From positions 1 through 7,230 of the forward strand of contig CAZECW010000050.1 of NCBI GenBank assembly GCA_964510585.1: 7,230 bases of DNA, read 5' to 3'. The stretch is from an uncultured archaeon. Its GTDB lineage: Archaea > Asgardarchaeota > Jordiarchaeia > Jordiarchaeales > Jordiarchaeaceae. Shown piece by piece: positions 4,855 to 7,230 of the stretch; the stretch's first letter is position 1, and each line of letters starts with the position of its first letter. The notes beneath the pieces are model-generated. The model saw nothing but the letters and a program-made list of their open reading frames with translations, ran no database searches and was not told the origin of the DNA. The position numbers were made by a program, and so were the translations under genes.

Positions 4855-5655
4855 TCATTTTTCATTTTTGCAAAAACGTAACTTTATCATAAGTTTTAGG
4901 TGTCTGTATCCGTCTTTTATTGGATTCAGTTTGGAGTTTGTGCCTCTTCTTGGGTGGTATGTTATTGGTGTTTCCACAATTTTTAAACGTTTTTTTGCTG
5001 CTTTAATTATCATTTCTGATGCGAATTCCATTCCTGTTGATGTTGCTTTTATTTTTTCCCATGCCTTTTTTGTTATTGCTCTCATTCCGCAGTGCATATC
5101 TGATATTCTTGTTCCGAATAGTATGTTTGCAATGAGGGTGAGGAGGGGGTTGCCAACGTATCTGTGTAGTTTTGGCATGGCTCCGGGGAGAATTTTGCCT
5201 TTGAGTCTGGTTCCCATCACAATGTCTGTGTTGCCGTTTTTTATTATCTTTATGAGTTTGGATGTTTCTTCTAGGTCGTATGTACCGTCTGCATCAGCCA
5301 TAACTATGATTTTTCCTCTGGCTTCTTTTATTCCGGATAGGTATGCATTGCCGTAGCCTTTTTTGGAGGGATTTACTATTTTTGCTCCGAGGCCTTTTGC
5401 AATTATGGGAGAGCAGTCGGTGGAGTTGTCTGCAACTATTATTTCGCCCTGTATTCTTAGTTTTTTGAATACGTTTTTGATTTTGGTGATGCATTCTCCT
5501 ATTGTTGGCTCTTCATTTAGGCAGGGTAGCACTACTGAAACGTCAATTTCTGTTTTTTCTATTTCGTTTAGTATGGTGATAGGTGTGTAATAGGGATTGG
5601 TCGTGGTGCACTGCTTGTTAGGGATTTGGATTCCTTGAAATTTATGTGCCTCCAA
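4855..5655 (-). CDS. Glycosyltransferase family 2, DPM1-like (polyprenol/dolichol-phosphate hexosyltransferase type)
   Basis: Motifs: VSVVLPCLNEE, ADNSTD, GYGNAY, MADADGTYD, VMGTR, YVGNPLL, SDMHCGMRA, GMEFASEM, ETPITYHPR and SKLNPIKDG. The TTG start has GGAGAG upstream. The exact start is uncertain because about 35 aa precede the domain. Confidence 0.92.
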   Translation of the reverse strand: MEAHKFQGIQIPNKQCTTTNPYYTPITILNEIEKTEIDVSVVLPCLNEEPTIGECITKIKNVFKKLRIQGEIIVADNSTDCSPIIAKGLGAKIVNPSKKGYGNAYLSGIKEARGKIIVMADADGTYDLEETSKLIKIIKNGNTDIVMGTRLKGKILPGAMPKLHRYVGNPLLTLIANILFGTRISDMHCGMRAITKKAWEKIKATSTGMEFASEMIIKAAKKRLKIVETPITYHPRRGTNSKLNPIKDGYRHLKLMIKLRFCKNEK

Positions 5656-5678
5656 TTAAGGCCACTCTCCAACTTGGG

Positions 5679-5915
5679 TTACGCTAATACTTTAGGGGTT
5701 GATTCTGCGTAGCTGCCTGAGCCTACCTTTATGTTCTCGTCGGGTTGGGGTATATCCAGCTCTTTTATGAATACCTTTGACATGTTTGTGTCGTAGTGTT
5801 GGCCGGAGTGTATGAAGGCGAGGTCTACATCAGAATACCTTTGAAGGGCTTTTATTACGGGCGCCATTTTTATGATTTCGGGTCTTGTTCCCGCAACACA
5901 GAGGACGCTTACCAC
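5679..5915 (-). pseudogene. wecB: 3'-truncated UDP-N-acetylglucosamine 2-epimerase (non-hydrolysing), N-terminal ~78 aa only
   Basis: GTRPEIIKMAPVIKAL, HSGQHYD..M..FIKEL.IPQPDEN and VGSGSYAEST are the hallmark WecB N-terminus. GTG 5915 has GGGGGT 4 nt upstream. TAA comes after 78 codons versus about 360-380 aa expected, and none of the three frames continues recognisably. Confidence 0.88.
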
Positions 5916-6278
5916 GTTTACCCCCTTCCAGTCACGTTTTCCCCTATTTCTTAGGGAGGCTTTTTTTCGCTCCATTTTTTGGGGCTTTTTCCCCTTTTCT
6001 TTATGTCTGTTGGCAGGCTGGGTGTTTCTTTTCGGGTTTGGATTGGTTTCCTCAGCTTTTGCGCTTCCAGATTTTGGTGCTGTTTTGGGTGCCTTTTAGT
6101 TTCTTTTTGTTTGTCTGAATATTTATGTTTTTGGATTTGCGACATTTTGGCTCTTTTTGTTTTTTTGTTTCTTGTTTTTGGAACCATGTTTGGTTTGTGT
6201 GGCTTCTTTTTTCTATAATTTTTTGGTGGTTGGTGGAGTATTTTCGTATGGGTTGCTGAAAAATTGTTTTTTTGGTTT

Positions 6279-6869
6279 TTAGAGGTATCCTTGTTGTTTT
6301 AGGTGGTTTTCTAGTATTTTTGTTATGGTTGTTTCTATGGTTTTGTGGTTTTTGTTTGGGTTTGTTTTTGACTGGTATTTTTGGAGTGCTTGGATTATTT
6401 TGTTTGGGAGGACTAGTTGGATGCGGTTTTTTGTTTCTGTTTTTGTTAGGTTTAGGGCTTGTTGTGGGGTTATTTTGTTTCCTTGTTTGTGTTGTGTTCT
6501 TAGGGTTTTGCATAGTTTTGTTGTGGGGATGTTGTTTTGGGTGATGGTTTTTAGGATTTCTGTTTCTATTTGTTGTTGGTTTTGGTTTGTGGCTATTTCT
6601 CTTGCTGTGGCTTGGATTTGTATGGTTGTGTTTCTGGTTAGTTTTTTGGGGTTTATGTCCAATTCTTGGACGTCGCGTTGGTGGCGTGTTAGGAAGTCTT
6701 GGTGTGCTATGTAGGATGCTACTGCTTTTCTTTTGCTTTCTGGGTTTTTTCCTCCTATTCCGGAGGTTTCGCCGATTTTTTGGTATGTCCAGTCGGGGTG
6801 GCGCTGCTTGACCCGCCAGAGGAACTGGGATATTTCGGTATCAGACAGATTTTTTCTGTTATAGTTTTC
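6279..6869 (-). CDS. C-terminal two-thirds of a ParB-family protein, in the -1 frame (ENxxR motif, HTH, RHH-like C-terminus)
   Basis: The track ORF 6279..6662 extends stop-free upstream to a TGA at 6911-6909. From 6869 it reads ENYNRKNLSDTEISQFLWRVKQRHPDWTYQKIGETSGIGGKNPESKRKAVASYI...LDINPKK. The frame has no ATG/GTG/TTG between 6908 and 6663. Confidence 0.75.
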   Translation of the reverse strand, partial: ENYNRKNLSDTEISQFLWRVKQRHPDWTYQKIGETSGIGGKNPESKRKAVASYIAHQDFLTRHQRDVQELDINPKKLTRNTTIQIQATAREIATNQNQQQIETEILKTITQNNIPTTKLCKTLRTQHKQGNKITPQQALNLTKTETKNRIQLVLPNKIIQALQKYQSKTNPNKNHKTIETTITKILENHLKQQGYL

Positions 6870-7204
6870 TTTAAAACTAGTACTTCTGCTTCTTCGGGCG
6901 TGAGATCCTCAGTATAGTCTACGTCGATGTATTCTTGCTTGTTTAGCACTGCGGCTCTGATTCTTCTCCATCCCTGCACCGCAAAAATTTCATCGCCGCC
7001 ATCACCGCTGTCTGTGAACTTTTTGAAGGAGCAGACTAGTGGGGTGTGGATTATGCCGTCTCTTTTTATGCTTTCGGTAAGTTCTTCAACGTCTGCCCAC
7101 CCGGATTTTCTGCCCTCGCTCTTCGTCCAGTCAAGCTCGCCTCGGGGAGTGGAGAACGTTTCATAATCATGCTCCCCAAGTTTTATGTGGAAACGCCTGA
7201 CCAT
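6755..7204 (-). CDS. ParB/RepB/Spo0J-family N-terminal (ParBc, CTP-binding) domain; 5' part of a frameshifted gene
   Basis: EELTESIKRDGIIHTPLV, the Arg patch AVQGWRRIRAA (GxRRxRA) and LTPEEAEVLVL match ParB. Similarity stops at 6869 and the zero-frame tail is Ser/Gly-rich. The frame is also open from 7204 to the window edge (RRIKIDPK), so the true start may lie further upstream. Confidence 0.85.
   Translation of the reverse strand: MVRRFHIKLGEHDYETFSTPRGELDWTKSEGRKSGWADVEELTESIKRDGIIHTPLVCSFKKFTDSGDGGDEIFAVQGWRRIRAAVLNKQEYIDVDYTEDLTPEEAEVLVLKKTITEKICLIPKYPSSSGGSSSATPTGHTKKSAKPPE
6869..6875 (-). other. Frameshift site: in-phase slippery heptamer T TTA AAG (or a 1-nt deletion)
   Basis: The zero frame reads GTT TTA AAG AAA. 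A -1 shift gives V-L-K-E-N-Y-N-R-K-N-L and restores the ParB ENxxRxxL motif. Confidence 0.6.
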
Positions 7205-7230
7205 TTTGGGGTCAATTTTTATTCTTCTCC

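Follow-up and report, generated by a model that had tools for sequence, protein, structure and literature searches.

The archaeal gene closest in organization to the one described here is fucA1, encoding an alpha-L-fucosidase in Saccharolobus (Sulfolobus) solfataricus P2, where -1 frameshifting takes place at the heptamer A_AAA_AAT (PMC1616953, PMC8211752). There, a 0-frame ORF and a -1-frame ORF overlap at a canonical heptamer, the split is specific to the strain and full-length genes occur elsewhere, and the full-length product has been shown both in vivo and in vitro at a level of 5-10%. Beyond the archaea, the 'corrective' frameshifting of problem indels is a recognised class (Atkins et al. 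2016, PMC5009743), with cases in essential genes of mitochondria and endosymbionts or under drug selection. Split genes may also be the plain outcome of an indel, as in the Pyrococcus furiosus chitinase PF1233/PF1234 (PMC3575233), which a single base separates into two ORFs relative to close relatives.

The gene analysed here, from an uncultured Asgard archaeon, encodes a ParB-like protein and resembles each of these systems in part. It shares with fucA1 the two archaeal ORFs overlapping at a canonical heptamer, and a split that is confined to certain strains. It differs in that the split is known from sequence alone, in that the lesion lies outside the heptamer, and in that other alleles carry unrelated lesions, including a stop codon. 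Like the corrective cases, it has lost one base, and within 3 nt comes a sequence at which a -1 slip would restore the frame; unlike them, the gene is accessory. The likeness to the Pyrococcus chitinase lies in the one-base indel relative to close relatives, whereas here several independent lesions and an intact allele are found side by side in populations.

One ParB-like gene in two reading frames

The window, the whole stretch of DNA that was analysed, is the entire 7,230-nt contig C50 of a 3.78-Mb MAG in 217 contigs. The names of its homologues and the hot-spring origin of the metagenomes that contain the stretch assign it to the Asgard class Jordarchaeia/Freyarchaeia. On its minus strand, the N-terminal reading frame (6755..7230) covers the ParB/Srx-type N domain as far as the GWRRIRA box, is open at the contig end, and closes with an out-of-frame tail and a stop at 6757-6755. 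The C-terminal reading frame (6279..6872, minus strand) contains the ENYNR box, the helix-turn-helix region and a helical tail, and terminates with TAA at 6281-6279. A preliminary description had taken the two ORFs for one ParB-type gene broken beside its EN box and continued by a long open -1 frame, and this much was borne out. Intact relatives run as a single ORF across the junction, the family alignment and the profile match place the split just before the ParB ENxxR box, and the -1 frame is open for 196-197 codons from 6872/6869 to 6279, a region in which the continued 0 frame has about 20 stops.

The proposed start at ATG 7204, with products of 149 aa and about 308 aa, did not survive. 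The 0 frame from this ATG does stop at 6755 to give 149 aa on translation of the ORF, but the frame remains open upstream. The end of the contig, at 7205-7230, falls inside the gene. The JGI contig L015 (3300017449), 100% identical over window 5255-7230 (1,976 nt), continues upstream in its positions 1-739 and supplies 36 codons and the upstream gene. The 36 N-terminal codons, absent from the window, are also present in P0018 and P0024-P0031. Adding these codons brings the 0-frame product to 185 aa and the joined protein to 344 aa. The break of the contig coincides with strain heterogeneity, visible as a two-path bubble in one of the metagenome runs described below (X1).

The codons at the junction of the window read GTA CTA GTT TTA AAG AAA ACT. 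By alignment, the ancestral junction was GTA CTA AGT TTT AAA GAA AAC, encoding V L S F K E N. The missing base, placed by alignment with the intact alleles and homologues, is one A of CTAAGT, which is now CTAGT, at about 6878 (deletion site 6877..6879, minus strand). In the DNA alignments, the intact CTA AGT TTT AAA GAA (L S F K E) stands against CT-AGT in the window. The deletion is about 3 nt to two codons upstream of the heptamer and outside the A-run. The one-A deletion that the preliminary description had offered as an alternative was thus of the right kind, but its site is CTAAGT and not TTAAAAGAA, and the sequencing error suggested as one possible origin is ruled out by independent assemblies. 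The predicted 185-aa product ends in the tail ...KICLIPKYPSSSGG..., while a -1 shift at the heptamer would, as read from the sequence, give ...VLVLK-ENYNRKNLSDTEI. The predicted junction peptide of the slip product spans ...EAEVLVLKENYNRK... and would have Val-Leu instead of Ser-Phe.

Other explanations of the split were examined and rejected. An independent start for the C-terminal half is not apparent, as the C-terminal frame has no ATG and its first TTG (6662) leaves only 127 aa. A mini-intron of the tRNA type (bulge-helix-bulge) is excluded by the collinearity with the intact alleles and paralogues, with no extra sequence. The homopolymer runs are too short for transcriptional slippage as the cause (T4 and A3, with A6 or A5 at the other site).

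Queried with the intact paralogue, a collection of 5.8 billion proteins yielded only 21 relatives of about 350 aa, all of them single ORFs. These are named Candidatus Jordarchaeum, Freyarchaeota or Jordarchaeaceae, and several are called ParB/RepB/Spo0J family by NCBI. The paralogue (C60), from the same genome as the window, is intact and 49% identical, and a single 320-aa HSP extends over the junction, where it reads ...AEILSFKENYNREQLS.... An orthologue from the same genus consists of one intact 347-aa ORF whose C-terminal part is 84% identical. In the closed genome G005, also of the same genus, this query detected no member of the family. F-K-E-N..R is invariant in all 21 family members. 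As to whether homologues retain the split and the heptamer, all are intact, and the codons at the site vary at synonymous positions: AGC TTC AAA in the orthologue, AGT TTT AAG in L003 and TTT AAA in others. Hence neither the split nor the slippery site is conserved across the orthologue, the paralogues and the 21 family members.

The assignment to the ParB type comes from profile and fold matches. Pfam ParB_N (PF02195) matched the halves of the window, the orthologue and the paralogue at 13-18 bits (E 0.003-0.09), below the gathering cut-off of 26.3 bits. A family profile searched against the PDB matched Thermus Spo0J (1vz0, E 7.3e-5), Helicobacter ParB (4umk, 8e-4) and Bacillus Noc (7ol9, 6e-3). 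The match spans both boxes, with GWRRIRAA placed on GERRYRAA and FKENYNREQLS on LVENLQREDLS. An AlphaFold model of the orthologue has a pLDDT of 70, with an N domain of low confidence (pLDDT 40-55). The top 31 Foldseek matches to this model are all ParB-type, namely Noc, ParB (ParB-CDP), KorB and Spo0J, followed weakly by pNOB8-like ParB-N and PadC, with target-normalised TM-scores up to 0.65. Taken together, these matches identify a two-domain ParB-type protein, with an N domain and a helix-turn-helix.

The bacterial ParB/Spo0J, Noc and KorB proteins, which are CTP-dependent DNA clamps, likewise have an N-terminal ParB/Srx domain and then a helix-turn-helix, and their arginine box and ENxxR box are also found in the Jordarchaeia family. 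However, G-W-R-R-x-R is invariant in 21/21 members, so that GWRRxRA (window 6934-6957, minus strand) stands where ParB has GERRxRA, and Trp takes the place of the catalytic Glu. The Glu of the ParB GERR box is used in CTP hydrolysis. The PDB entry 7o0n, among the fold matches, is an E93A mutant. The family further differs from the bacterial clamps in its ParB_N score below the cut-off, in its restriction to Jordarchaeia/Freyarchaeia, and in a lineage-specific C-terminal helical tail with no match. It also differs in genomic context, as the genes called on either side of 12 loci include none of ParA type. These flanks instead contain LicD, pyruvyl transferase, glycosyltransferase and epimerase genes, and the paralogue lies beside a crotonase and a nitronate-monooxygenase-like gene. 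The locus thereby introduces a small, Jordarchaeia-only ParB-like family with GWRR for GERR and no ParA neighbour.

A piece of 30-35 nt at window 6605-6639, inside the conserved LTRNTTIQIQATA, recurs in unrelated-looking contigs of the metagenome runs X1 and X3, loose-ended on either side, and probably occurs in paralogues or other strains as well.

Alleles in hot-spring populations

We compared the region with assembled Logan contigs from four hot-spring metagenome runs (X1-X4), and obtained 12 further contigs through protein and contig look-ups (ENA, JGI, Logan). An intact allele at low frequency in X1-X3 could be hidden in such assembled contigs. The sequences fall into four alleles, all 95-99% identical to the window. 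Allele (a), with the A lost from CTAAGT at about 6878, is that of the window, the major path of X1 (depth 52), X3, L010, L011, L013, L014 and L015. Allele (b) has the A at 6878, and its A6 run (6850..6855, minus strand) is shortened to A5, which places a frameshift 27 nt downstream and yields a product ...SFKENYNRKICLIQKY...; it is found in the minor path of X1 (depth 32), X2, L012, L016 and L017, and its proteins include P0025, P0029 and P0030. In allele (c), GAA at codon 334 (6309..6311, minus strand) is changed to TAA in L009 and L020 (proteins P0018 and P0036), removing the last 10 residues, ENHLKQQGYL, which include the conserved end of the family, LKQ(E/Q)GY(L/I/F). Allele (d) has no lesion and encodes an intact 343 aa in X4, L018 and L019. 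The base missing from the window is visible as an extra T after 6877 in the Logan contigs of X1 (minor allele), X2 and X4.

The markers GRKSGW and DSGDGGDE are common to alleles (a) and (b) and distinguish them from (c) and (d), and no intact allele on the (a)/(b) sequence background was present in a collection of 15 billion proteins. Each of the two also contains a derived, non-conservative substitution at a conserved site. Ser has replaced Tyr at a Tyr/Phe/Leu site in all (a) contigs, and in (b) a Ser/Thr site has changed from Thr to Met.

The deletion of the window is present in 5-6 ENA/JGI contigs as well as the Logan contigs of X1 and X3, and the contigs that have it come from different assemblers (SPAdes-style NODE, MEGAHIT-style k141, JGI and Logan). 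In X1, alleles (a) and (b) co-occur as a clean two-path bubble, at depths of 52 and 32. Since independent assemblies from several samples carry the deletion, it is real. The frame-breaking lesion is absent from the orthologues and other alleles contain independent lesions, which is the pattern of a polymorphic pseudogene.

Measured against the orthologue, dN/dS amounts to 0.14 in the part upstream of the break and to 0.11 between the break and the tail, values that mostly predate the lesion. The frame was thus long under purifying selection, indicating that the lesion is recent. Downstream of the break, the nine broken sequences have 3 synonymous and 5 non-synonymous sites, too few to test, and no second lesion. 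Across 13 alleles, including intact ones, the polymorphic sites from the junction to codon 245 are 7 synonymous and 2 non-synonymous. This 7:2 ratio, together with the unbroken C-terminal frame in 9/9 frameshifted sequences, would also agree with continued translation of this frame. As the broken alleles diverge by about 1% or less, a second lesion is not yet expected, and the counts do not separate a young pseudogene from a frame still being read.

The heptamer and the readings of the split

The canonical heptamer noted in the preliminary description, T TTA AAG, is present at 6869..6875 (6875-6869, minus strand), where its X XXY YYZ phase matches that of the N-terminal frame and it falls inside the overlap of the frames. 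It is in this phase only because of the upstream deletion. Intact alleles have these letters as (AG)T TTT AAA G(AA), that is, the Phe-Lys-Glu codons of the invariant FKENYNR motif, which the displaced frame reads one base out of register. The 950-nt gene contains 12 XXXYYYN heptamers, so that chance alone should put about 0.6 of them in phase in the 51-codon overlap, and one in-phase heptamer is not above that expectation. Judged from the sequence, T_TTA_AAG beside the break looks accidental.

The two stems proposed downstream (6789..6859, minus strand) are both there at the spacing claimed, but they are no better than shuffled sequences and are not conserved. The hairpin ACAGA-N5-TCTGT (6859-6845) has 5 bp, is A/U-rich and begins 9 nt past the heptamer, and the two-part stem CCAGUU/UGGCG...CGCCA/GACUGG (6828-6789) begins 40 nt past it. 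The local hairpin folds at -3.9 kcal/mol at 37 °C (z = -1.6). A 99-nt fold that includes the GC-rich stem has z = -1.56, with 13/200 shuffles equal or better, and across the folds 13-16/200 shuffles were equal or better. The homologues have no consensus structure, the alignment fold being -3.6 kcal/mol without compensatory or covarying pairs. We found no structure 5-9 nt downstream that is steadier than chance, and the larger stem is wrongly spaced. No Shine-Dalgarno-like string was seen upstream of the heptamer on reading the sequence.

We consider this most probably a polymorphic, decaying accessory gene, broken in the window by an ordinary one-base deletion and lost in several ways in the populations of the species. 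With the A of CTAAGT lost, the ribosome would go out of frame two codons ahead of the invariant FKENYNR box and stop 37 codons past the heptamer. The outcome would be a 185-aa N-domain fragment lacking the ENxxR box and the DNA-binding half. The heptamer itself would be a by-product, as a one-base displacement of the frame turns TTT AAA GAA into (G)TT TTA AAG. The allele of the window would then be a natural loss-of-function, or strongly hypomorphic, form of an accessory Jordarchaeia-specific ParB-like gene. We infer a loss of function in its product and relaxed selection on this copy. A strain-variable glycosylation island surrounds the gene, and the same genome has a second, intact paralogue; an accessory gene with such a paralogue would be under no pressure to keep the ParB-like copy readable. 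The epimerase remnant next door (see below) and the failure to find the family in G005 provide a context of decay.

The preliminary description proposed an evolved, programmed -1 frameshift that could determine how much full-length ParB-like protein is made relative to an N-domain-only product, pointing to the in-phase heptamer, the hairpin 9 nt downstream and the long open -1 frame. The split and the in-phase heptamer are, however, confined to one allele lineage of one species, and the orthologue, the paralogues and near-identical sister alleles are intact. The heptamer is not kept, differing at synonymous sites, and the structures are non-significant, unconserved and, for the larger stem, wrongly spaced, so that no stimulator stands out. 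Such programming is already largely refuted by the intact close homologues, and we regard it as highly improbable. A sequencing or assembly error in the MAG has in its favor that artefacts often take the form of single-base indels, and that the contig is short and breaks off within the gene. Such an error is scarcely credible given that the same deletion recurs in independently assembled contigs from several samples and assemblers, and that X1 holds both alleles as a clean bubble (depth 52 versus 32).

An unlikely candidate, though one with more in its favor, is compensatory ('leaky') frameshifting, in which a few ribosomes slip -1 on U_UUA_AAG and so turn the window's form into a low-dosage allele by adventitious rescue. 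The canonical heptamer lies in phase directly past the lesion, and none of the 9 frameshifted sequences, taken from at least 9 samples over years, has a broken C-terminal frame. Alleles (a) and (b) are both one-base deletions, 27 nt apart and each correctable by a -1 slip, and no intact allele was found on their background. In allele (b), the A5 lies on an A_AAA_A string where, on reading the sequence, a P-site -1 slip restores exactly R-K-N-L. The fucA1 gene of S. solfataricus P2 is an archaeal precedent (PMC1616953, PMC8211752), and in the 'corrective' class a nearby frameshift mutation is compensated at (G_UU)A_AAG (PMC5009743). Against this, E. coli heptamers that lack a stimulator exceed a background of about 0.05% by a factor of only 2-10 (PMC4066793), the present site has no visible stimulator, and a G in the Z position is disfavoured by the X XXY YYZ rule (review PMC8211752). 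Beside the ENxxR box, the slip product would have an invariant Phe replaced by Leu and a nearly invariant Ser replaced by Val. That sister strains have a nonsense allele also speaks for a dispensable gene. More doubtful again is the wider proposition that neither (a) nor (b) is dead, both being low-dosage forms kept in Jordarchaeia populations by a -1 slip on U_UUA_AAG or A_AAA_A. If leaky rescue were true, it would be the second archaeal case of compensatory -1 frameshifting of the fucA1 type and the first in an Asgard archaeon.

Under the favored reading of a decaying accessory gene, the locus would matter little as a recoding candidate, being an ordinary frameshift mutation in a dispensable gene copy. 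It is instead a worked example of how an in-phase canonical heptamer beside a split is to be expected by chance in A-rich genes, and of how comparison with alleles and an orthologue quickly settles such split-gene cases. It would also show, at the level of populations, how an uncultured Asgard archaeon is losing one accessory gene by three independent routes.

Composition and neighbourhood of the locus

The next gene (window 5679-5975, minus strand) is a 98-aa remnant of a UDP-GlcNAc 2-epimerase-type gene, covering Pfam positions 1-56 of 347. The epimerase is full-length (387-445 aa) in L010, L011 and L013, and homology to these contigs ends at window 5691. The end of the remnant is a rearrangement junction in the strain-variable glycosylation island. 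In a strain with the nonsense allele, the upstream island includes an adjacent nucleotidyltransferase-HEPN pair, toxin-antitoxin-like (L009 341-1347), that is absent from the window. The MAG is rated 96% complete and has only 7 tRNA matches (Rfam RF00005), or 5-6 by aragorn; its tRNA genes are either largely unassembled or too interrupted for recognition.

The tail of the ParB-like gene (6279..6602, minus strand) is rich in A and C (A.56, C.30, G.06, T.09). The last 108 codons and the 300-nt spacer together (5976-6602, minus strand) are 86% A+C on the coding strand, as is also seen in L002 613-940. This tail composition is common to the same-genus orthologue; that of the paralogue is normal. 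The tail has a dS of 0.14, compared with 0.5-0.6 for the head of the gene, and a dN/dS of 0.94. The tail belongs to a strand-skew domain that reaches into the spacer down to about 5976. Genome-wide, keto skew in 400-nt windows has a standard deviation of 0.13, and the stretch analysed here holds the most extreme positive value. The skew has rewritten the amino-acid make-up of the tail to K/N/T/Q/P/H.
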